Part shown: piece after piece, positions 21,621-56,428 of the stretch
How positions within the stretch are numbered: the first letter of the stretch is position 1
How the letters are laid out: each line of letters begins with the position of its first letter
Made by a program: the position numbers and the translations under genes
The notes under the pieces: model-generated
Database searches by the model: none
What the model saw: the letters and a program-made list of their open reading frames with translations, nothing else
What the model was told of the DNA's origin: nothing
Source of the DNA: an uncultured Mycoplasmatota bacterium
Lineage (GTDB): Bacteria > Bacillota_I > Bacilli_A > RF39 > UBA660
Length of the DNA stretch: 64,000 bases
Direction: 5' to 3'
Assembly: GCA_900547225.1 (NCBI GenBank)
Contig: URFW01000003.1
Coordinates: 13,054 to 77,053, forward strand

Positions 21621-23411
21621 ATGAATAACTTATATTTTCCAATATGTGCAGTACTTATAAACATTTTAATTGTAGTAGTATTTTTTAGTAAAAAAAGAAT
21701 TCATAGTGATGAAACAAGAGCATATTCTAACCTTATAATAATTGCGTTGTTAGAATCCTCTTTAGCGTGCCTTTTAGTGGTATTAATGAACCTATATGGA
21801 ATTCCTAAGTATATCTATAACATCCACAGAATAGATTATATTTTAATATTGTTTTGGGTATGGGCGTTATTTAACTATGTACTTATAGTTTCTGTTTATA
21901 ATAATAAAAAGTTAAGAGGGGTAATTCAAAAGTCTACTTTTATAGTAAATATTTTAGTTTCAATTTGCTTTTTCTTTTTAAACGTTAATGTTATAAACAA
22001 AGATGGAATAATTGATACTAATGGTAGTGCGATGAACTTACTTGTAAGCATGTTAGGAATTTACGTGATATTAATCTTGCTTCTAGTATTTAAATCATTA
22101 ATTAAAAATATTAAAAGTTCTAATAACAAAAAATTTATACCATTATTTTTTCTGGCATTATTAGGAATATTATCTCTTGTAATTAGAAGGTTTGCACCGG
22201 AAATATTATTAATTTCATTAGTTGCAGCATACGCTGATTTAATAATGTTTTTTACAATAGAAAATCCCGATGTAAAAATGATATATGAGCTTAACAGAAA
22301 TAAAAAATTATTAGAAAGCATGAGTGAAGAAAAATCTAACTTTTTATTTAGTATGACTCAAGATACTAAAAAGCCTATTGATAATATTTTGGAAGTAAGC
22401 AAAATACTTTTAGACGATAAAAATAAGGAAGATATGAAAACAGGTATTAAAGTTATAGAAAATAATGCTAGAGGACTTAAAAACATCATTAATAACGTAT
22501 TAGATATTTCAAATATATCATCTAGTAAGTTAGTTGTTTCAAACGAAACTTATAATGCTATTTCACTTTTAAATGAATGTATAAAGAAAATAGAAAAAGA
22601 TGTTAATAAGAACGTTACAATAGAAACAGAAATAAGTAAGAACATACCAGATGAGTTATATGGTGATAGCGTTAAGCTAAAACAAGTAATAATGAGTATT
22701 TTAATTAATGCTTCTAAGTATACTAAAGAGGGCTATATAAAGGTAAGTGCTAATGAAATAGTTAAGTATGATGTATGCCGTTTAATTATTGAGATAGAAG
22801 ATACCGGATGCGGAATGAGCGTTGATAAATTAAATGAACTTTTAAAAACTAATACTGATTTAGAAGATACTGACCTTTTAAAACTTAATAGTTTGGATGT
22901 AGATTTAAAACTTGCTTTTAAAATAATTAGAAAATTAGGTGGTTTTATAAATATTAGAAGTGAAAAAGAAAAGGGAAGTACGTTTACTATAATTTTAGAC
23001 CAAAAAATAAAAGTTAGTAAAGATTATTATAGTGAGTACATCTTTAATAAGAAAAAGGTAATGGTTGTAAGTGATAAATTGCAAACTTTAAAAGATATAA
23101 ATACTTTAGCTAGCAAGTATGACATAGAACTTTTAACTACAATGCATAGTAGTGATATTATAGAAAGAGTAAAAGATGGTGAGAGTTTTGACTTAATTCT
23201 TTTAGAAGATGATATGAAGCCTATAAGCGGTTTTGGTACGCTTGGAAAACTTCAAGAAGCAAAAGAAGGATTTAATGTTCCAACCGTTATAATGCTAAAC
23301 AAGAACAAAGAATCAATAAAGGATCATTATGTTGAGGATGGATTTAGTAATTACATAAGAAAACAAAATCTAGAAGAAGACTTCGATAAAGTAATAAAAA
23401 AATATATATAA
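21621..23411 (+). CDS. membrane histidine-kinase-like protein with degenerate H-box (His replaced by Gln) and C-terminal receiver-like domain
   Basis: Six to seven N-terminal TM helices. A DHp-like region SNFLFSMTQDTKKPI sits where kinases have S-x-F-L-A-x-M-S-H-E-L-R-T-P-L. An intact HATPase_c follows (N-box ILINASKYT, G1 EDTGCGM, G2 GGFINIRSEKEKGSTFTI), then a roughly 120-aa CheY-like domain (DLILLEDDMKP). Confidence 0.65.
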   Translation: MNNLYFPICAVLINILIVVVFFSKKRIHSDETRAYSNLIIIALLESSLACLLVVLMNLYGIPKYIYNIHRIDYILILFWVWALFNYVLIVSVYNNKKLRGVIQKSTFIVNILVSICFFFLNVNVINKDGIIDTNGSAMNLLVSMLGIYVILILLLVFKSLIKNIKSSNNKKFIPLFFLALLGILSLVIRRFAPEILLISLVAAYADLIMFFTIENPDVKMIYELNRNKKLLESMSEEKSNFLFSMTQDTKKPIDNILEVSKILLDDKNKEDMKTGIKVIENNARGLKNIINNVLDISNISSSKLVVSNETYNAISLLNECIKKIEKDVNKNVTIETEISKNIPDELYGDSVKLKQVIMSILINASKYTKEGYIKVSANEIVKYDVCRLIIEIEDTGCGMSVDKLNELLKTNTDLEDTDLLKLNSLDVDLKLAFKIIRKLGGFINIRSEKEKGSTFTIILDQKIKVSKDYYSEYIFNKKKVMVVSDKLQTLKDINTLASKYDIELLTTMHSSDIIERVKDGESFDLILLEDDMKPISGFGTLGKLQEAKEGFNVPTVIMLNKNKESIKDHYVEDGFSNYIRKQNLEEDFDKVIKKYI

Positions 23412-35688: not shown

Positions 35689-35789
35689 TTTTGGTTAACA
35701 CTACATAGTGTTAACCTTTTTAGTTACTATTGACTTTGAAATAAAATAAATGTATTCTATATTTAGATAATAAAGGAGAGAAGATTATA

Positions 35790-36302
35790 ATGAAGAAACA
35801 AAGTATAGCAATTATTGGCGTTATAGCATTCGTTTTAGCAGTTGTAGTTGGATATGCATTATTTAGTGATAATTTAACTGTTAGTGGTAGTGCAACCGCA
35901 ACCGGAGATTTTGATGTTGAGTTTACTAGTGTAGGAGAAATTACTAAGGTAGGTTATACAGCAGTTGATGCAACTGAAATAGCAAAAATTTCTGAAGATA
36001 AAAACACGTTAACGGTAACTGTTAATAAGCTTGATTATCCAGGTGCTTATGTAACAATTCCTGTTACTATAACTAATAAAGGTTCAGTTTCAGCCAAATT
36101 AAAAAACATTAATGAAACCGGGTTAACACAAGATAATAGAGCAATAAAAGTTACATATACAGGTGTTGCAGCAAGTGATACGGTAATAAAAACTAATGAT
36201 ACTCAAGCAATGAATATTAAGGTAGAATGGGATCCATCTATAAATACCGGATCATCAGACGTAACTTTCCAAATCACTTTGGAATACGAACAAGCAAAGT
36301 AA
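35790..36302 (+). CDS. TasA/camelysin-like secreted protein with SipW-cognate signal peptide (paralog 1)
   Basis: MKKQSIAIIGVIAFVLAVVVGYALFSDNL fits the SipW-cognate class signal (hydrophobic helix followed by G-Y-A-x-F-S-D). Roughly 140-aa beta-rich body. RBS AAAGGAGAGAAGATTATA-ATG. Confidence 0.65.
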   Translation: MKKQSIAIIGVIAFVLAVVVGYALFSDNLTVSGSATATGDFDVEFTSVGEITKVGYTAVDATEIAKISEDKNTLTVTVNKLDYPGAYVTIPVTITNKGSVSAKLKNINETGLTQDNRAIKVTYTGVAASDTVIKTNDTQAMNIKVEWDPSINTGSSDVTFQITLEYEQAK

Positions 36303-36345
36303 AAATAGGTCATCCTATTTTTTTTAATATGTGAGGTGGATAAAA

Positions 36346-36864
36346 ATGAAAAAACAAAACATGATAATAATAGTCGTGGTTGCTTTTTTGCTTACGATAA
36401 CAATTGGTTACGCATTATTTAGTGAAAGTTTGAGCATCAATGGAACAGCTTTAGCAGAAGGAACTTTTGATGTTGAATTTACTTCTGTTGGAACACCTAC
36501 GTGTATAGGTTTTACCGGAACATGTGATTCTAATACATTAACTGGTATTTCATCTGATAAAAATACGTTAAACGTGACCGTTAATAAATTGGAATTTCCA
36601 GGTGCTTATGTTGAATTTCCTGTTACCGTAACTAGTAAAGGTACTATTCCTGCGGTTTTGGAAAGTATTTCAGAAACAGGACTTGAAACTGATGATACCA
36701 TAAAGGTAACATACACCGGTATATCCGAATTAAAGGGCCAAAAATTAGAACAAAACGGGACTCAAACTTTTAGTATTAAAGTTAAATGGGATGAAAATTC
36801 TAATAAATCTTCTGAAAACGTGCAATTTTCAATAAAAATGAATTATAAACAAATTGCAGAATAG
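36346..36864 (+). CDS. TasA/camelysin-like secreted protein (paralog 2)
   Basis: …IGYALFSESL signal and a body collinear with paralog 1 (KLEFPGAYVEFPVTVTSKGTIPAVLESI). Start set to ATG 36346 after RBS GTGAGGTGG. Confidence 0.65.
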   Translation: MKKQNMIIIVVVAFLLTITIGYALFSESLSINGTALAEGTFDVEFTSVGTPTCIGFTGTCDSNTLTGISSDKNTLNVTVNKLEFPGAYVEFPVTVTSKGTIPAVLESISETGLETDDTIKVTYTGISELKGQKLEQNGTQTFSIKVKWDENSNKSSENVQFSIKMNYKQIAE

Positions 36865-36981
36865 TTATTGCTTAGAGGTGGAAGTAAATTCCGCCTTTTA
36901 AATTGAAAAAAACTGCTATTTATGATAGTATTTATATGTAAAAATAGAGATAAATATGATATGACATAGAAGGGGTAATTT

Positions 36982-37587
36982 ATGGAAACACATTCAAAAA
37001 ATAAAAAAAGTTTAAAAATTATTAGTGTTATAGTTGCAATATTGGTGTGTTTAATGAGTGTTGGTTACGCCTTTTTTAGTGATTCTTTATCTATTAATGG
37101 AGTTGCATCAACCGTTGATTACTATAGTGGTACAATGCTTCCAACAAACCCTATTATGTTAAAACCTGAAGATAATTTATATAGTACCTATGATACGTCT
37201 AGAAGTAAACTTTCTTTAAGGGAAGAACACTGGGTTGGAGACACTTTTATAGTAATTTGGAACAAGGGAGTAGGTATTTCAATATCAAGAAAGACAATTA
37301 CTTATACAATTTCATTTTCTAATCCAACTGAACTTCCATATACGAATGGACAAGTTACTACTAAAATAGAAAATAATGGTTTAGGTTATATAAAAAGTGC
37401 AACAGGATCACTTTCTAAAACTACATTACAGCCCGGTGAGGCAGTAGAAGTTAAACTAACTATTACATCTAATTTTTTATCAAGACTAGATGATCAAGAT
37501 ATAACTGCTACAATTTCATATGAACTTCAAGGGGAGACAAAGTATTTTTACTTTGTAGTTAAGTATCGCGGTTGGGATAATGATTAG
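36982..37587 (+). CDS. TasA/camelysin-like secreted protein (paralog 3, divergent body)
   Basis: …VGYAFFSDSL signal. The body is more divergent and Thr/Ser-rich. Confidence 0.6.
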   Translation: METHSKNKKSLKIISVIVAILVCLMSVGYAFFSDSLSINGVASTVDYYSGTMLPTNPIMLKPEDNLYSTYDTSRSKLSLREEHWVGDTFIVIWNKGVGISISRKTITYTISFSNPTELPYTNGQVTTKIENNGLGYIKSATGSLSKTTLQPGEAVEVKLTITSNFLSRLDDQDITATISYELQGETKYFYFVVKYRGWDND

Positions 37588-37615
37588 TATATTTAGGAAT
37601 AAGGGTGGTGAAAGA

Positions 37616-38812
37616 GTGAAAAGAAGATTAAAAATAATTTTATTGTCGATATTAATTTTAATATCGGCAGCACTTGAGTTTGCGGGCTTATCAGCTCATT
37701 TTGGATCTTCTTATTCTTATGTTATAAAACCAATTATTTGGGTGTTTATTGGCATAATAACGTATTTTTTCTTTAATGACGATGTTATTCCAAATCTAAA
37801 GCATAAAAAAGAAGTAGAGTTTTATACAATAGTAACAACACTTATATACTTTGTAATATATTTTGGTTTAGGTTATATAAAAGGTTTTGCACATAATCCA
37901 TATGACTACACGCTAAAGGGAGTATTAAATAATTTATGGGTGTTTGTTCCTGTTGTAATTGTAAAAGAATACGTAAGATATTACATGATTAATAATACTG
38001 GTACAAAAAATATATTATTACATGCATTATTAATTTCTATTTTACTTACTATGATAGATTTAAATATATACAAGCTTAACTCTTATTTTTCAACGTCACT
38101 AAGTGTTTTTGAATTTATAATTCAAAACTTTATCCCGAAATTGATAACAAATTTATATTTAACATACATATCATACTATGCTGGATATAAAACTACAATT
38201 ATTTATGCTTTCATACCACAATTTTTGTTGTATGTTTTACCAATACTTCCAGATTTGGATATGGCAACAATGTCTATTCTAAATTCATCTATTCCATTTT
38301 TCTCTTATGTTTATATAAATTATATTATAAATAAGCTAGAGAAAACGTTGGATAGGAAAAGAAATAAAGTGGTGGGTATAAAAGGATATGTATTAATGAT
38401 TTTATTTGTTATCATCATGATTTTATTTGGGCTTGGTATATTTAGTGTTCAACCGCTTGTTATTGCAAGTAATAGCATGTTACCTAGCATAAGAAAGGGA
38501 GATATTGTAATAATAACAAATAAGAACACCAAAAAAATAAAAAAAGGAGAAATAATAAGATATAGGATTGATAATTATTATGTTGTCCATAGAGTTGTTT
38601 TAATAAAAAAAGATGAAAGAGGAAACAGAACGTTTATAACTAAGGGAGATAACAATAGCAACATTGATCTTTTTGCGGTAAAAGAATCTCAAGTAGATGG
38701 GGTTGTTAAAGTGGATATTCCTTATTTAGGTTACCCGACTTTATTGTTTAATAAACTACTAAATACTGGAGTAGATAAAAGGGTTATAATTGATAAAGGA
38801 AGAATAAATTAA
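37616..38812 (+). CDS. sipW: SipW-type (archaeal/ER-type) signal peptidase I fused to a ~260-aa polytopic N-terminal membrane domain
   Basis: The C-terminal roughly 130 aa carry the SPase boxes (IASNSMLPSIRKGD with the catalytic Ser in SM-x-P, YYVVHRVV with His, and TKGDNN). The N-terminal about 260 aa are highly hydrophobic with at least 7 predicted TM helices and no recognisable motif. Start set to GTG 37616, which is 5 nt after AAGGGTGGTG; the six-frame ORF begins at 37580. Confidence 0.75.
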   Translation: MKRRLKIILLSILILISAALEFAGLSAHFGSSYSYVIKPIIWVFIGIITYFFFNDDVIPNLKHKKEVEFYTIVTTLIYFVIYFGLGYIKGFAHNPYDYTLKGVLNNLWVFVPVVIVKEYVRYYMINNTGTKNILLHALLISILLTMIDLNIYKLNSYFSTSLSVFEFIIQNFIPKLITNLYLTYISYYAGYKTTIIYAFIPQFLLYVLPILPDLDMATMSILNSSIPFFSYVYINYIINKLEKTLDRKRNKVVGIKGYVLMILFVIIMILFGLGIFSVQPLVIASNSMLPSIRKGDIVIITNKNTKKIKKGEIIRYRIDNYYVVHRVVLIKKDERGNRTFITKGDNNSNIDLFAVKESQVDGVVKVDIPYLGYPTLLFNKLLNTGVDKRVIIDKGRIN

Positions 38813-38920
38813 TTGTAAAATAATGACAAATAATATCATAAATAAACATAGTTTGTCTGATATCATTGAAGTTTATATTAATTGTTGTTATAATTTTTTA
38901 ATAGGAGCATATGAAAATAT

Positions 38921-39415
38921 ATGAAAAAACAAAATCTGTTAATTATATTGATTATTTTTTCTTTGCTTGTTATACTTATTGGATATTCGGTTTTTAAAAT
39001 GAGTGCTAATATAAGGAATGTAATGACATCTAATAGTGATATAAACGTAGAGTTTAAAAGCATCGGAAAAATATATGAAAGTGGAAGTGTTGGTGCTGAT
39101 GCAGTTATATCAAAAGATAGAAAAATAATTTTTATAAACATTCCTAAATTAACTTATCAAGGAGCTTACGTAATTATACCAATAATGGTAGAAAACGTTG
39201 GTACAACACCTGTAAGATTAAGTTCTATTTATGAATATGATACAAAAGATAGTGACACAATAAAGGTGTACTATGATGGTATTGCAATAACTGATAAGGT
39301 TTTAAATCCAGGTGATGTTGAGGAATTTAGAGTCAAAGTGATATGGGAAAATAAACAGGATAATAAACCAATTAAAATGAATTTTTACTTAAAATTAAAT
39401 TACGTTCAAGAATAG
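38921..39415 (+). CDS. TasA/camelysin-like secreted protein (paralog 4)
   Basis: …IGYSVFKMSAN degenerate signal. The body aligns with the other paralogs (KLTYQGAYVIIPIMVENVGTTPVRLSSI). Confidence 0.6.
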   Translation: MKKQNLLIILIIFSLLVILIGYSVFKMSANIRNVMTSNSDINVEFKSIGKIYESGSVGADAVISKDRKIIFINIPKLTYQGAYVIIPIMVENVGTTPVRLSSIYEYDTKDSDTIKVYYDGIAITDKVLNPGDVEEFRVKVIWENKQDNKPIKMNFYLKLNYVQE

Positions 39416-39427
39416 GAGGTATATGAC

Positions 39428-40522
39428 ATGAAAAAGCAGAGACTTCATGGTAAAACTATAAAAAAAATCGTTGTATCTATTTTATTAGTTTTTGCTTTGG
39501 TTGTACAGTTTGCTTTTTTAAGCTATTTATTTAAGGCAATATCTCCAAATAATGATAAAAGTAATGTAATTATGGATTATACATCAAGTGGAAATTTAGA
39601 TTATAAGGTATATTTGAAGCAAAATGATTTTATTGATAGTACTTATCTGAACGCTGGTGAAGCTTATGTTTTGGATTTGATTGATCACATAAAAATAATT
39701 TCACTTTATGATTTTAAATCAACAAATAAGACAAGCGTGACAGGAACTAATAAACTAATTTCAAAATTAAAAGTATATTATAAAGAATCAACCGACAAAA
39801 GTAGTAATCCTGAAGTTATGACTAAGGAAAAAACATTAGATGAAAAAGTAATGAGTTTTAATGACAATAAGTTTATTTCTTCGGGTGAATATGATTTATA
39901 CTTGGATGAATATATAAATATAATTAAGGAATTTCAAAATAAAGTTAAGATAGCAGTAGATGGATATTTAGAAGTATCTGAAGTAAATAGCTTTTCTGGC
40001 AAAGTAGGTGGTGCATCTTATGGGGATACATATTCTAATACAATAAAGATACCTTTATCATCTTCGGTTGTTAAAATAGAAAGTGATGCATCAAATCCAA
40101 AAACAAAATCCGTATACGAAAGTGACCTAGTTAAAACTAATAAAATAGTTTTGAACTATATCGTAATAGCAAACATAGTTACTTTCATAATAATTTGTTT
40201 CTTACTTAGAAAGTTATTTACGTTTACTAATAAAACTGAGTATGAAAGAGAACTTAATAAGATACTTAAGAATTATGATGATATAATTGTAAATACTAGA
40301 ACAATGGTTGATGTATCTGATTATAAGTTAATCAAAATAGAGGATTTTAAAGAAATTCTTAATTTATCTAGGGAACTTTTATTACCAATTATGAATTATG
40401 AAATAGAAAAAGGAAAGGCAACGTGTTTTTATGTTATTAAAGATGATATACTATACACTCACTTAATTTATGATAAAAATGCGGAAGAATATAAAAATAA
40501 AATATATAAAGAGGGCTATTAG
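39428..40522 (+). CDS. two-TM accessory membrane protein of the TasA/SipW cluster (TapA-like role is speculative)
   Basis: N-terminal signal-anchor, roughly 200-aa extracytoplasmic domain, a second TM (IVLNYIVIANIVTFIIICFLL), and a 100-aa cytoplasmic tail. It starts 10 nt after paralog 4. Confidence 0.5.
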   Translation: MKKQRLHGKTIKKIVVSILLVFALVVQFAFLSYLFKAISPNNDKSNVIMDYTSSGNLDYKVYLKQNDFIDSTYLNAGEAYVLDLIDHIKIISLYDFKSTNKTSVTGTNKLISKLKVYYKESTDKSSNPEVMTKEKTLDEKVMSFNDNKFISSGEYDLYLDEYINIIKEFQNKVKIAVDGYLEVSEVNSFSGKVGGASYGDTYSNTIKIPLSSSVVKIESDASNPKTKSVYESDLVKTNKIVLNYIVIANIVTFIIICFLLRKLFTFTNKTEYERELNKILKNYDDIIVNTRTMVDVSDYKLIKIEDFKEILNLSRELLLPIMNYEIEKGKATCFYVIKDDILYTHLIYDKNAEEYKNKIYKEGY

Positions 40523-40585: not shown

Positions 40586-40660
40586 TGCCCTGTAGCCAAG
40601 TGGTAAGGCATCTGACTCTGAATCAGACATGCACTGGTTCGAATCCAGTCAGGGCAACCA
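40586..40660 (+). tRNA. tRNA-Gln (anticodon CUG)
   Basis: Cloverleaf folded by hand: acceptor TGCCCTG/CAGGGCA, anticodon stem TCTGA/TCAGA, loop CTCTGAA, T-arm ACTGG-TTCGAAT-CCAGT, and 3' ACCA. Confidence 0.85.
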
Positions 40661-40669
40661 ATTATGTAT

Positions 40670-40746
40670 GGCCCGTTGGTGAAGGGGTTTAACACATCGC
40701 CCTCTCAAGGCGACATTCACGAGTTCAAATCTCGTACGGGTCACCA
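40670..40746 (+). tRNA. tRNA-Glu (anticodon CUC)
   Basis: GGCCCGTTGGT...acceptor, anticodon stem TCGCC/GGCGA, loop CTCTCAA, T-arm ACGAG-TTCAAAT-CTCGT, and 3' ACCA. Near-identical to the B. subtilis tRNA-Glu backbone. Confidence 0.85.
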
Positions 40747-44322: not shown

Positions 44323-46935
44323 ATGAATAAATATAATAAAAACGGACTAAGTGATAAAGAAGTTATTAAAAGTAAGGAAAAATATGGTACTAATGAAATT
44401 AAAAAAGGCAAAACTAATAGCTTTCTATCTTTATTAATAGAGTCTTTAGGAGACCCTATAATTAAAATATTGTTAATTGCACTTGCGATAAAAGTGGTTT
44501 TCTTATTTAGAGACTTTGATTGGTTTGAAACACTTGGAATTTTAATAGCAATCTTTTTAGCCTCTTTTATATCAACTATTTCAGAGTATGGAAGTGAAAA
44601 AGCCTTTGAAAAACTAAAAGAAGAATCATTAAAGTTAAAATGTAAAGTTAAAAGAAATGGGAAAACAACAGAAATTTCATTTGATGAAGTTGTTGTAGGG
44701 GACGTTGTTTTATTAGAATCAGGTGATAAAATACCTGCAGATGGTGTTGTTATAGATGGTTTTTTATATGTTAATGAATCATCCATAAACGGTGAATCAA
44801 AAGAGGTACATAAAGAAAAATATTCATATGGAAACATAAAAGATGAAAACAAGTTATATAGAGGTTGTGTCGTATGTGAAGGTGCCGCATTATCAGTTAT
44901 AACGGATGTTGGTGATAATACTTTCTATGGCAAGATTGCTAGGGAGCTTCAAGAAAAAAAGAACGAAAGTCCTCTTAAAATAAGGCTTAGATCACTTGCT
45001 AAAGTAATTAGTACGTTTGGTTATATAGGAGCTTTTTTAGCATCTGTTTCATATCTTTTTTCCAATATAATCGTTAGAAATAATTTTAATTTAGGATTAA
45101 TAATGGATACCATAACAAACATTCCGCTTATGATGAATTATGTTATATATGCTCTTACGCTTGCGGTTACCATCATAATTGTTTCTGTACCAGAAGGGCT
45201 TCCAATGATGATAACCCTTGTTTTATCATCAAATATGAAAAGAATGCTTAAGAATAATGTTTTGGTAAGAAAAATGGTAGGTATAGAAACAGCGGGATGT
45301 ATAAATATATTATTTAGTGATAAGACAGGTACAATAACAACTGGTAATTTATCTTGTGAAAGTATATTAGATGGTAACTTAAGTGTATATAAAAAAGAAA
45401 ATGAACTTAAAGATAACACATACTCAAAAATATTAAAAACATCTATGGTAGTAAACAATATGTCATCATACGATAATGATAAGGTAATAGGAGGAAACAT
45501 AACTGATAGATGCTTATTATCGTTTTATAAGCCATTTAAAATAGATGGTATAAAAATAATTAAACAGATACCATTTAATAGTAAAAATAAATATATGATT
45601 ACCGTTATAGATGATAAAATGATTAGAAACTTAATAAAAGGTGCACCAGAAGTATTATTAGATAAATGTAAATATTATTATGATAAAAATGGTAGAAAAG
45701 AATTATTCTTAAATAAAAGTAAGATAGAAGAAAAAATAAAAAACGCTACATCAAATGGAGTTAGGGTAATTGTTTTAGCAAGTAGTGATAACATAAATGC
45801 TACTATTTTTAATGACTTAGTTTTTGTAGGGGCAATATTTATTAAAGATCCGGTAAGAAAGGAAGCAAAAGAAGGAATTAGGTTAGTTAGTAATGCTTCT
45901 ATTAAAACGGTTATGATAACTGGTGATAATAAAAATACGGCAGAGGCTATCGCAAGGGAAGTAGGGCTTGTAACTGATAGTAGTGATGTTATTATTACGT
46001 CAGAAGAGTTAAACGCTTTAAGTGATAGTGAAGTAAAAAGAATGCTTCCTAAATTAAAAGTTGTATCACGAAGTCTTCCACAAGATAAATCAAGACTAGT
46101 TAGACTATCAAATGAAATGGGACTTGTAACTGGCATGACAGGGGATGGGGTAAATGATGCACCAGCACTTAAAAGAGCGGATGTAGGTTTTGCCTTTGGC
46201 TCTGGTAGTGAAGTTGCAAAAGAAGCAAGTGACATAGTAATACTTGATAATAACTTTTTATCAATTGCTAAGGCGGTTTTGTTTGGCAGAACCATATTTA
46301 AAAGCATTAGAAAGTTTATTATATTTCAGTTAACCGTTAACTTATGTGCACTTAGTATATCAATAATAGGCCCTTTTATCGGTGTTGAAACTCCTGTTAC
46401 GGTAATACAAATGCTGTGGATAAATATGGTTATGGATACGCTTGCAGCCCTTGCATTTGCATTTGAACCTCCTTTGCTAGAATACATGAATGAAAAATCT
46501 AAGAAAAAGGATGAAAGTATAATTAATTCTTATATGGTAAGTGAAATAGTTATAACCGGAATTTATACTACATTACTTTGTATTTTGTTTTTAAAACTCC
46601 CATTTATTAAAGAATTATTTTTAAGTGATAAATCATTTATGACAGCATTTTTTGGCCTTTTCATATTCGCGGGCATATTTAATTGTTTTAATGCTCATAC
46701 AAGTAGAATTAACATACTTGCTCATTTATATAAGAATAAGATGTTTATAATTGTTATTTCCTTTATTGTAATAGTTCAAATAATTCTTATGTATTATGGT
46801 GGTGATATGTTTAGAACAAGTCCTCTTACGTTAAAAGAATTTATAATTATGATATTAATATCACTTTCGGTAATACCAGTTGATGTGCTAAGAAAGATTG
46901 TTTCTAAGAAATATGGTAAAACTGGAAGCGTGTGA
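44323..46935 (+). CDS. calcium-translocating P-type ATPase (P2A/PMCA-SERCA type)
   Basis: DKTGTIT phosphorylation site, TGD, MITGDN, MTGDGVNDAPAL hinge, 870 aa with about 10 TM. Confidence 0.9.
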   Translation: MNKYNKNGLSDKEVIKSKEKYGTNEIKKGKTNSFLSLLIESLGDPIIKILLIALAIKVVFLFRDFDWFETLGILIAIFLASFISTISEYGSEKAFEKLKEESLKLKCKVKRNGKTTEISFDEVVVGDVVLLESGDKIPADGVVIDGFLYVNESSINGESKEVHKEKYSYGNIKDENKLYRGCVVCEGAALSVITDVGDNTFYGKIARELQEKKNESPLKIRLRSLAKVISTFGYIGAFLASVSYLFSNIIVRNNFNLGLIMDTITNIPLMMNYVIYALTLAVTIIIVSVPEGLPMMITLVLSSNMKRMLKNNVLVRKMVGIETAGCINILFSDKTGTITTGNLSCESILDGNLSVYKKENELKDNTYSKILKTSMVVNNMSSYDNDKVIGGNITDRCLLSFYKPFKIDGIKIIKQIPFNSKNKYMITVIDDKMIRNLIKGAPEVLLDKCKYYYDKNGRKELFLNKSKIEEKIKNATSNGVRVIVLASSDNINATIFNDLVFVGAIFIKDPVRKEAKEGIRLVSNASIKTVMITGDNKNTAEAIAREVGLVTDSSDVIITSEELNALSDSEVKRMLPKLKVVSRSLPQDKSRLVRLSNEMGLVTGMTGDGVNDAPALKRADVGFAFGSGSEVAKEASDIVILDNNFLSIAKAVLFGRTIFKSIRKFIIFQLTVNLCALSISIIGPFIGVETPVTVIQMLWINMVMDTLAALAFAFEPPLLEYMNEKSKKKDESIINSYMVSEIVITGIYTTLLCILFLKLPFIKELFLSDKSFMTAFFGLFIFAGIFNCFNAHTSRINILAHLYKNKMFIIVISFIVIVQIILMYYGGDMFRTSPLTLKEFIIMILISLSVIPVDVLRKIVSKKYGKTGSV

Positions 46936-53856: not shown

Positions 53857-55763
<1,907 letters not shown>

Positions 55764-56270: not shown

Positions 56271-56345
56271 TGGAGCAAGTGAGGAGAATCGAACTCCCGT
56301 CTCAGCCTTGGCAAGGCCGCGTACTAGCCGTTGTACTACACCTGC
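56271..56345 (-). tRNA. tRNA-Gly (anticodon GCC)
   Basis: Reverse-complement folds as acceptor GCAGGTG/CACTTGC, D-arm GTAC-AACGGCTA-GTAC, anticodon stem CGGCC/GGCTG with loop TTGCCAA, T-arm GGGAG-TTCGATT-CTCCT, and 3' TCCA. Confidence 0.85.
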
Positions 56346-56353
56346 AAATAAAT

Positions 56354-56428
56354 TGGAGGGGCCAGCCGGATTTGAACCGGCGATCGTGGAGTTGCAGTCC
56401 AATGCCTTACCAGCTTGGCTATAGCCCC
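56354..56428 (-). tRNA. tRNA-Cys (anticodon GCA)
   Basis: Reverse-complement: acceptor GGGGCTA/TGGCCCC, anticodon loop CTGCAAC, T-arm GCCGG-TTCAAAT-CCGGC, and 3' TCCA. Confidence 0.8.

Follow-up and report, generated by a model that had tools for sequence, protein, structure and literature searches.

Extracellular protein fibres whose subunits are matured by a dedicated signal peptidase are known from both archaea and bacteria. The closest characterised relative of the locus described here is AbpX, a biomatrix protein of Pyrodictium abyssi that polymerises by donor-strand complementation with Ca2+ at the interface between strand and groove, and whose fibrils with their donor strands have been shown by cryo-electron microscopy (cryoEM) (bioRxiv 10.64898/2026.01.04.697558, hereafter the AbpX preprint). 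According to that work, the AbpX clade of the TasA superfamily occurs in Thermoproteota, Bacillota and Chloroflexota. Its hallmarks are an aromatic residue at mature position +2, an acid at +4, an amphipathic donor strand and acidic subunits, together with a TIGR02228 peptidase with ten transmembrane (TM) helices, an 'SPase accessory' of the DUF5305 family, minor subunits that resemble AbpX, and a tip protein of variable structure. AbpX-type fibres were defined early in 2026 from one hyperthermophilic archaeon, and the bacterial loci, of which C. amylolyticum, Natronincola, Ammonifex and Thermacetogenium are the examples given, have been described bioinformatically only. Here we report on a cluster of six genes in a 64-kb stretch of contig URFW01000003.1 (the window, meaning the whole stretch analysed). 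The cluster encodes four small secreted proteins (P1 to P4), a signal peptidase and a DUF5305 membrane protein, and probably builds a thin extracellular protein fibre, held together non-covalently, of the AbpX type within the TasA superfamily.

The initial annotation of the cluster had stated that no such locus was characterised, a statement overtaken by the AbpX preprint of January 2026, in which archaeal AbpX is characterised and bacterial loci are described. The kind of locus is already known from that source, and what is new is a lineage that is not among its examples. Three further points go beyond the preprint, namely the assignment of a CPBP fold to the extra domain of the peptidase, a conserved P4 class, and the finding that P3 has only an N-terminal module in common with the other subunits.

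Compared with the AbpX loci, the window's cluster has the same homologous subunits, donor-strand register, multi-TM TIGR02228 peptidase, DUF5305 protein, AbpX-like minor subunits and divergent 'tip' protein. It differs in that it belongs to a mesophilic, gut-associated, uncultured lineage of Bacilli, that its subunits are less acidic, and that it has a conserved fourth class, P4, with a basic, non-acidic donor strand. In addition, the cluster contains no LPXTG or SLH anchor, histidine kinase or c-di-GMP gene, and thus lacks wall anchors and regulators that are common in the bacterial examples of the preprint. The B. subtilis tapA-sipW-tasA operon (with B. cereus calY/tasA and C. perfringens sipW-bsaA) also places a dedicated peptidase of the endoplasmic reticulum (ER)/archaeal type among fibre substrates with Phe at P2', includes a minor subunit, and is thought to assemble its fibre by N-terminal strand donation. 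In contrast to that operon, the window has subunits without a PF12389 match, a DUF5305 protein, no TapA, and a peptidase of ~390 amino acids (aa) with an extra 8-TM domain, whereas SipW has ~190 aa. The haloarchaeal Tat-fimbriae (Tafi; tafA-G) share with the cluster major and minor subunits, a dedicated peptidase (TafD) and a DUF5305 protein (TafG); when the adjacent peptidase is deleted in Tafi, subunits are not processed and fibres do not form (PMC11821415, PMC12337348). However, Tafi subunits are exported by Tat, whereas those of the window have Lys-rich, Sec-type n-regions without a twin arginine, and in TafD, which has 4 TM helices, the extra domain is C-terminal, with no N-terminal CPBP-like domain.

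Conservation of the locus and its secreted subunits

A scan of a one-genome-per-species set found at least 432 loci with a relative of the peptidase, and the best 80 of these were analysed. The order subunit(s), peptidase (~390 aa) and DUF5305 recurs among them, the peptidase being present in 80/80 and DUF5305 downstream in about 70/80 (phmmer), usually immediately; as hosts we find Bacilli, Clostridia, Tissierellia, Lachnospiraceae, Oscillospiraceae and Chloroflexota. In the 14 closest loci the order is P1-P2-P3-peptidase-P4-DUF5305, as in the window, with small variations: P3 is present in 1-2 copies, absent in three loci and shifted in one, and P4 was undetected in two. The nearest genome locus in this set is that of 'Clostridium sp. 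CAG:594' (75% peptidase identity), and the next relatives are uncultured Bacilli/'Mollicutes' metagenome-assembled genomes (MAGs) and Candidatus Aphodocola, from samples labelled as faecal, caecal and rumen. The botulinum/sporogenes lineage named at first for this DNA is therefore wrong. Proteins with 94-99% identity were found only in ENA and Logan metagenome assemblies, and the species of the window seems to be absent from the one-genome-per-species set. Meanwhile, the exact P1 protein is present in 396 blocks of a metagenome collection, on contigs of up to >1 Mb. A compact, complete AbpX-type locus is conserved in this uncultured gut-associated lineage of Bacilli; because of this conservation and the recurrence of P1, the locus is a concrete candidate for a matrix or adhesion fibre of organisms that have not yet been grown.

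The N-terminus of each of the four small proteins consists of an n-region rich in Lys, followed by a hydrophobic helix of 16-20 residues with G-Y-A/S at its end, and a regular-expression scan found this signature in no other open reading frame (ORF) of the window. The initial annotation was right in seeing a SipW-type peptidase surrounded by secreted substrates with TasA-like signal-peptide and cleavage junctions. Its motif G-Y-A-(L/F)-F-S-(D/E), given for all four proteins, holds for P1 to P3, whereas P4 reads G-Y-S-V-F-K-M. Similarly, its four paralogs are reduced to three: P1, P2 and P4 are related over their full length (BLASTP E-values of 3e-58 for P1-P2, 3e-27 for P1-P4 and 4e-24 for P2-P4), whereas P3 resembles them only over ~35 N-terminal residues. 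The C-terminal ITLEYE motif that the paralogs were said to share is not common to them, one Tyr alone being invariant in that region.

P1, with predicted cleavage after GYA23 and a mature sequence starting LFSDNLTVSGSATA..., is encoded by the first gene, which has the best ribosome-binding site (RBS) of the cluster (AAAGGAGAG). P2, which is 52% identical to P1 and has the mature N-terminus LFSESLSINGTALA, forms a distinct orthologous group kept in 14/14 close loci. In P3, signal peptide and donor strand are of this kind too (FFSDSLSINGVASTVDY), but the body has no detectable homology to the paralogs. The match of P3 to the P1 family covers 33-36 N-terminal columns only (BLASTP 2e-6; hhalign 97% over 33 columns), the shared segment running through the signal peptide and 13 residues beyond it, and a profile of the P3 family gave no meaningful match to the PDB. 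The P3 class of the relatives ranges from 195 to 332 aa. P4 lies always between the peptidase and DUF5305, and in the window 12 nt separate it from the DUF5305 gene.

With cleavage predicted after G-Y-A, the mature N-termini would be LFSDNLTV (P1), LFSESLSI (P2) and FFSDSLSI (P3). Accordingly placed in the mature P1 to P3 are an aromatic residue at +2 and an acidic one at +4 (L-F-S-D, L-F-S-E and F-F-S-D, respectively), both conserved in orthologs, and hydrophobic residues at +6 and +8, which is the register of W2/E4/L6/L8 in AbpX (xWSETLSL). The P4 junction, GYS/VFKMSANIR (the slash marks the predicted cut), has a basic residue at +3 and no acid at +4. In the close loci the N-termini are class-specific, following LFSETLTINGTATA in P1/P2, FFSESLTINGVASTVDY in P3 and (V/I)F(R/K)(T/I/M) in P4; the altered P4 form is kept in most orthologs with a readable junction, with a basic residue at +3 and never an acidic one at +4. 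The isoelectric points (pI) and Asp plus Glu contents of the mature proteins are 4.47 and 12.9% for P1, 4.53 and 12.8% for P2, 5.02 and 11.1% for P3, and 6.53 and 12.8% for P4.

The family of these subunits was examined by profile comparison. Against the PDB, the paralog profile matched AbpX (9sj2_C) with an E-value of 0.015 when built from 4 sequences and of 7e-5 when built from 24, and the 24-sequence P1-family profile also matched 9rhp_A (7e-4). Alignment of the P1 family with the matched AbpX segment by hhalign gave a probability of 94.9% (E 4.7e-8, 32% identity over 73 columns). This homology is that of the P1/P2/P4 family and does not extend to the body of P3. When 100 aa of AbpX, taken from the HMMER alignment, served as query, no homologs were found. 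The initial annotation had placed the proteins in the TasA/camelysin family and named PF12389 and TIGR04088 as checks. PF12389 (Peptidase_M73) had no match at E<=1 in the four window subunits or 24 family members, and TIGR04088 matched P1 only, at 13.1 bits with a cut-off of 19. TIGR04087 (TapA) gave a faint match on P3 (15.8 bits, cut-off 80), and the SipW equivalog NF046067 reached 49.4 bits against a cut-off of 190. Since these profiles are absent or below cut-off, membership in the TasA family proper was rejected, and the link of the subunits is to AbpX instead. The proposed tapA-sipW-tasA organisation can be kept at the level of the superfamily, while each of the tests for TasA proper came out negative. 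Judged from its sequence, the locus shows these features of the AbpX clade: homology to AbpX in the P1/P2/P4 family, the donor-strand motif in P1 to P3, the multi-TM TIGR02228 peptidase and the DUF5305 protein; its subunits are acidic, but less strongly so than AbpX.

The AlphaFold2 (AF2) monomer model of P1 (predicted local distance difference test, pLDDT, 82) has a beta-sandwich body and unstructured mature residues 1-19, and the N-terminus of the AbpX monomer is likewise unstructured (AbpX preprint). Fold searches with the P1 model were non-specific, returning only generic Ig-like or PapD-like sandwiches. Because they do not discriminate, the structural support is weak, and what the AbpX assignment draws on is the sequence, the motif and the gene context.

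Among the 80 relatives, two other arrangements were observed. Three loci (L074, 2197-7282; L015, 5390-7904; L040, 4969-7676) carry four to seven tandem subunit paralogs ahead of the peptidase, and in many of the paralogs mature +4 is Gln, Ser or Thr and not an acid, so that Ca2+ dependence may not be general. Seven loci of Lachnospiraceae, Oscillospiraceae and other Clostridia (L044, L046, L050, L053, L056, L060 and L072) have a recognisable subunit of ~305-347 aa with the junction GTGYA/YWTDTLNVTT, which most of the seven encode downstream of DUF5305 and not upstream of the peptidase. These seven loci represent a different layout of the same module.

The signal peptidase and its DUF5305 partner

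The C-terminal 140 residues of the peptidase form an ER/archaeal-type signal peptidase I (TIGR02228, 5.8e-25, 88 bits with a cut-off of 51.85). S287, H325-R326, G344-D345 and D351 are invariant in 111 diverse peptidase sequences, and the catalytic pair is Ser/His, not Ser/Lys, with the conserved Asp of a GDNN motif. In a profile search of the PDB, human SEC11A/C was the best match at 1e-24, whereas bacterial LepB-type enzymes reached only ~0.01. The enzyme thus resembles the eukaryotic signal peptidase complex (7p2p/7p2q), which also has a membrane accessory with domains on both sides; in contrast to that complex, the window's enzyme is bacterial and substrate-dedicated, and its accessory is a DUF5305 protein without demonstrated homology to signal peptidase complex subunits. 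According to a passage of PMC10269814, Phe at P2' makes TasA a poor substrate of LepB, so that SipW is needed. The predicted cleavage sites of the window also have Phe at P2', which, on the strength of that passage, suggests that a dedicated enzyme is needed here as well.

Ahead of the catalytic domain, the AF2 model of the peptidase contains 9 long helices; no hydrophobic C-terminal TM segment was found in the protein. The count of about nine predicted TM helices compares with the 'ten TM' reported for AbpX-associated signal peptidases. The model of the N-terminal domain (N-domain; pLDDT 70-89) shows the eight-helix arrangement of the CPBP fold and thereby resembles a CAAX protease. Its only strongly conserved polar residues, in the 80 loci and separately in 111 cluster representatives, are N106, E118 and R121, with the E118-x-x-R121 pair conserved at 97-100%, and no conserved histidine was found in either set. 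Of the CPBP motifs EExxxR, FxxxH and HxxxN/D, the histidines of motifs 2 and 3 are absent. PF02517 had no match at E<=1 in the window peptidase or in any of the 111 family members, and hhalign of the N-domain with a verified PF02517 protein gave a weak probability of 24%, in which E118/R121 fall on CPBP motif 1 and a residue other than His on motif 2. The lack of a conserved histidine, with only E118-x-x-R121 conserved, suggests that the N-domain is a CPBP-fold domain without catalytic histidines, a putative pseudo-protease as in SpdC. From the known CPBP/Rce1-like proteins (the inactive scaffold SpdC/LyrA, 6u0o; Rce1, 4cad) it differs in being fused to a signal peptidase I, in having no PF02517 match and in lacking the motif 2/3 histidines.

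A search of the full library with the N-domain alone matched 804 cluster representatives, nearly all of 375-405 aa and matching at residues 1-245, indicating that this domain is essentially always fused ahead of the peptidase. The terms CPBP, CAAX, Rce1 and SpdC are absent from the AbpX preprint; in the literature searched, no paper was found that connects CPBP with SipW-type peptidases or describes a fusion of CPBP to signal peptidase I. The CPBP-like fold offers a hypothesis for the 'ten TM helices' of the preprint, with E118/R121 as a target for mutagenesis. Stand-alone CPBP genes with PF02517 matches (4.6e-17 and 4e-16) and all three catalytic motifs were seen 1-1.2 kb upstream of the fibre loci in 2/80 relatives (L034, 5948-6691, plus strand; L002, 4742-5815, plus strand), which are too few for linkage to be called.

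The last protein of the cluster belongs to DUF5305 (PF17231, 7.6e-15, 55.4 bits with a cut-off of 29). Its two TM segments, at residues 8-39 and 237-268, bear out the 2-TM accessory protein first noted at the cluster end, and the predicted topology places ~200 aa outside the cell, as a domain between TM1 and TM2, and a domain of ~95 aa after TM2 in the cytoplasm. The family corresponds to TafG in haloarchaeal Tat-fimbria loci (PMC11821415, PMC12337348) and to the 'SPI accessory' in AbpX loci (bioRxiv 10.64898/2026.01.04.697558), and it is sometimes fused to signal peptidases (bioRxiv 10.64898/2026.01.04.697558; PMC11821415, PMC12337348).

Proposed fibre assembly and alternative explanations

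Beta-rich secreted subunits, a dedicated peptidase and a 2-TM accessory are best read as the parts of a polymer with major and minor subunits, as the initial annotation had it. The precursors would be exported by Sec and held in the membrane via the signal helix until the dedicated Ser/His peptidase cuts after G-Y-A. This cut would free the N-terminal amphipathic strand (F2, D/E4, L6, V/I8), which could then insert into the open beta-sandwich of a neighbouring subunit by donor-strand complementation, probably aided by Ca2+ at the +4 acid. The subunit classes suggest testable roles. P1, or P1 together with P2, may form the shaft, and P1 is the candidate major subunit because its gene comes first, with the best RBS upstream and a weak hairpin downstream. 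P3 would be a tip or adhesin that caps the groove end, since a donor strand on an unrelated, variable body can fill a terminal groove and need not offer one. P4, the paralog with the basic donor strand, could act as base, anchor or initiator, in view of its groove-bearing body, its non-acidic strand and the short gap between its gene and that of DUF5305. The CPBP-like domain most likely has a non-proteolytic role, either docking the signal helix inside the membrane or serving as an assembly platform, and would position the docked junction at the active site of the peptidase, with DUF5305 acting as accessory subunit of that enzyme.

A speculative and rather doubtful extension of this scheme is that the ~390-aa enzyme is a two-module assembly machine. 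In it, the CPBP-fold pseudo-protease would capture the signal-anchor helix, and the Sec11-type domain would cut and hand the donor strand to the next membrane-held precursor, so that the fibre grows from its base, with P3 first and distal and P4 last and membrane-proximal. If true, this would be a route of pilus assembly coupled to a peptidase and different from those by sortase, chaperone-usher and type IV systems, and hundreds of species of Bacillota and Chloroflexota, as well as archaea, would have it.

Several points weigh against a fibre of the AbpX type. We infer all of the following: polymerisation, Ca2+ dependence, the cleavage site and the roles of the subunits. The sequence link to AbpX is modest, with 73-93 aligned columns at ~32% identity, and by calculation the subunits are less acidic than AbpX (pI ~4.0, ~15% Asp plus Glu). 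The CPBP assignment comes from a medium-confidence model with weak sequence support. In addition, a regular-expression scan of the 64-kb window found no LPXTG proteins, and the window contains no LPXTG, SLH or sortase anchor, unlike many bacterial AbpX loci (AbpX preprint).

The cluster might instead be a bona fide TasA/camelysin (Peptidase_M73) operon, an expanded equivalent of tapA-sipW-tasA or sipW-bsaA. A SipW-type peptidase flanked by substrates fits this, and the GYA/LFSD junction resembles that of TasA, which is TWA/AFND; the sub-threshold TIGR04088 match of P1, the faint TapA match of P3 and the presence of the TasA fibre 8aur among the weak Foldseek matches point the same way. We nevertheless regard it as quite improbable, given the missing PF12389 match, a PDB profile search that finds AbpX and not TasA, SipW and TapA scores far under their cut-offs (49 against 190 bits and 15.8 against 80), and eight extra peptidase TM helices and a DUF5305 partner that are both absent from the Bacillus operon. 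It seems unlikely, too, that the small proteins are secreted or surface-bound monomeric beta-sandwiches, such as adhesins or binding modules, which have a dedicated peptidase and form no polymer. The generic sandwiches returned by the fold searches and weak DUF4352 and Ig-like hints in Pfam would suit such monomers, but the conserved amphipathic N-terminal strand fits the AbpX donor-strand register and is unstructured in the monomer model. P3 conserves that strand alone, which is sensible if the strand is an assembly module, and the subunits are homologous to a protein that forms donor-strand fibrils by cryoEM (AbpX preprint).

Two other readings were considered and rejected. The spore-associated appendage suggested in the initial annotation drew on position only, that is, on peptidoglycan-modifying neighbours, one of which had been called cortex-lytic. 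This neighbour encodes a muramidase of family GH25 that carries two LysM domains and is not recognisable as a cortex-lytic enzyme, and neither a GH25/LysM muramidase nor a polysaccharide deacetylase is spore-specific. With no sporulation genes seen among the 15 flanking ORFs scanned, relatives that are uncultured gut Bacilli/'Mollicutes'-labelled MAGs, and no likeness to known Ena-type subunits in any search, we find nothing in support of a spore appendage and hold it to be highly improbable. To type IV pilins or pseudopilins, or sortase-assembled pilins, we give practically no credence: short N-terminal hydrophobic helices and tandem small subunits are reminiscent of them, but there is no G/F-T-L-x-E prepilin motif, no prepilin peptidase, and no LPXTG or sortase in the window, and the enzyme is a signal peptidase I.

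Layout of the cluster and neighbouring genes

The coordinates of the cluster given at the outset were right, and its gene count is corrected here from five to six. ORF calling shows six co-directional ORFs between a strong terminator and two tRNA genes (Table 1). Independent gene calls on four metagenome contigs with an identical locus gave the same proteins, of 170/172/201/398/164/364 aa. For P2 this means 172 aa, where the longer GTG start chosen at first would give 177 aa. The peptidase ORF, which ends at 38812, can start at ATG 37580 (410 aa), in which case it overlaps the end of P3 by 8 nt, or at GTG 37616 (398 aa). The latter start is most likely, because the RBS GGGTGGTGA sits 5 nt 5' of it, nearly all peptidase homologs have 397-398 aa, and the independent gene calls agree.

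Table 1. Features of the AbpX-like cluster and its 5' boundary (positions in the window)
Feature	Coordinates	Strand	Description or basis
Intrinsic terminator of upstream GH25/LysM gene, 5' cluster boundary	35693..35716	+	10-bp stem then T-run
Promoter-like region 5' of P1 gene	35730..35791	+	three sigma-70-like matches, 9-10/12
P1	35790..36302	+	AbpX-like subunit, 170 aa
Hairpin + U-run after P1, weak, possible leaky attenuator	36301..36322	+	folding
P2	36346..36864	+	AbpX-like subunit, 172 aa
Hairpin after P2, possible attenuator or terminator	36874..36898	+	folding
P3	36982..37587	+	201 aa, candidate tip or minor subunit
Signal peptidase, N-terminal 8-helix membrane domain (aa 1-250), predicted CPBP/Rce1-like fold	37616..38365	+	
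Signal peptidase, TM anchor + ER/archaeal-type Ser/His catalytic domain (aa 255-398)	38378..38812	+	
P4	38921..39415	+	164 aa, full-length paralog
DUF5305 accessory membrane protein	39428..40522	+	364 aa

The upstream terminator folds with -13.1 kcal/mol (z -3.8), and none of 200 shuffles was equally stable (0/200). Downstream of the cluster lie tRNA-Gln at 40586, tRNA-Glu at 40670 and a terminator. From these boundaries on both sides, the cluster is predicted to be a separate transcription unit. The hairpin after P1 (-7.4 kcal/mol, z -1.4) is not significant relative to shuffles; that after P2 is more stable (-13.3 kcal/mol, z -2.8; 3/200 shuffles equally stable), has a weak U-tail and was not flagged by the terminator scan. 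The promoter call is a consensus match only, and the region has as many such sites as its shuffled versions (38 found, 38 expected), so that in this AT-rich DNA the promoter scan is uninformative. A search of Rfam revealed tRNAs only; neither a riboswitch nor another RNA element turned up within the cluster or ahead of it.

On both sides lie ordinary housekeeping or cell-wall genes, namely those for a methionine gamma-lyase-like protein, a polysaccharide deacetylase and, immediately upstream, the GH25 muramidase with LysM, as well as gltX and the gene of a UvrD-like helicase. Beyond gltX and the UvrD-like helicase gene, about 3.8 kb downstream of the cluster, lies a gene for a PMCA-type calcium-translocating P-type ATPase (TIGR01517, 4.6e-186; 44323-46935, plus strand). 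Its nearness to a cluster whose closest characterised relative needs Ca2+ is probably a coincidence. A hybrid sensor histidine kinase/response regulator is encoded 12 kb upstream (21621-23411, plus strand); bacterial AbpX loci often have a kinase inside the cluster (AbpX preprint), and there is none among the six genes here. Finally, a large serine recombinase (XisF/Ccr-like, 7.5e-41) adjoins two tRNA genes, an arrangement (53877-55751 and 56274-56428, both minus strand) that may mark the boundary of an integrated element.

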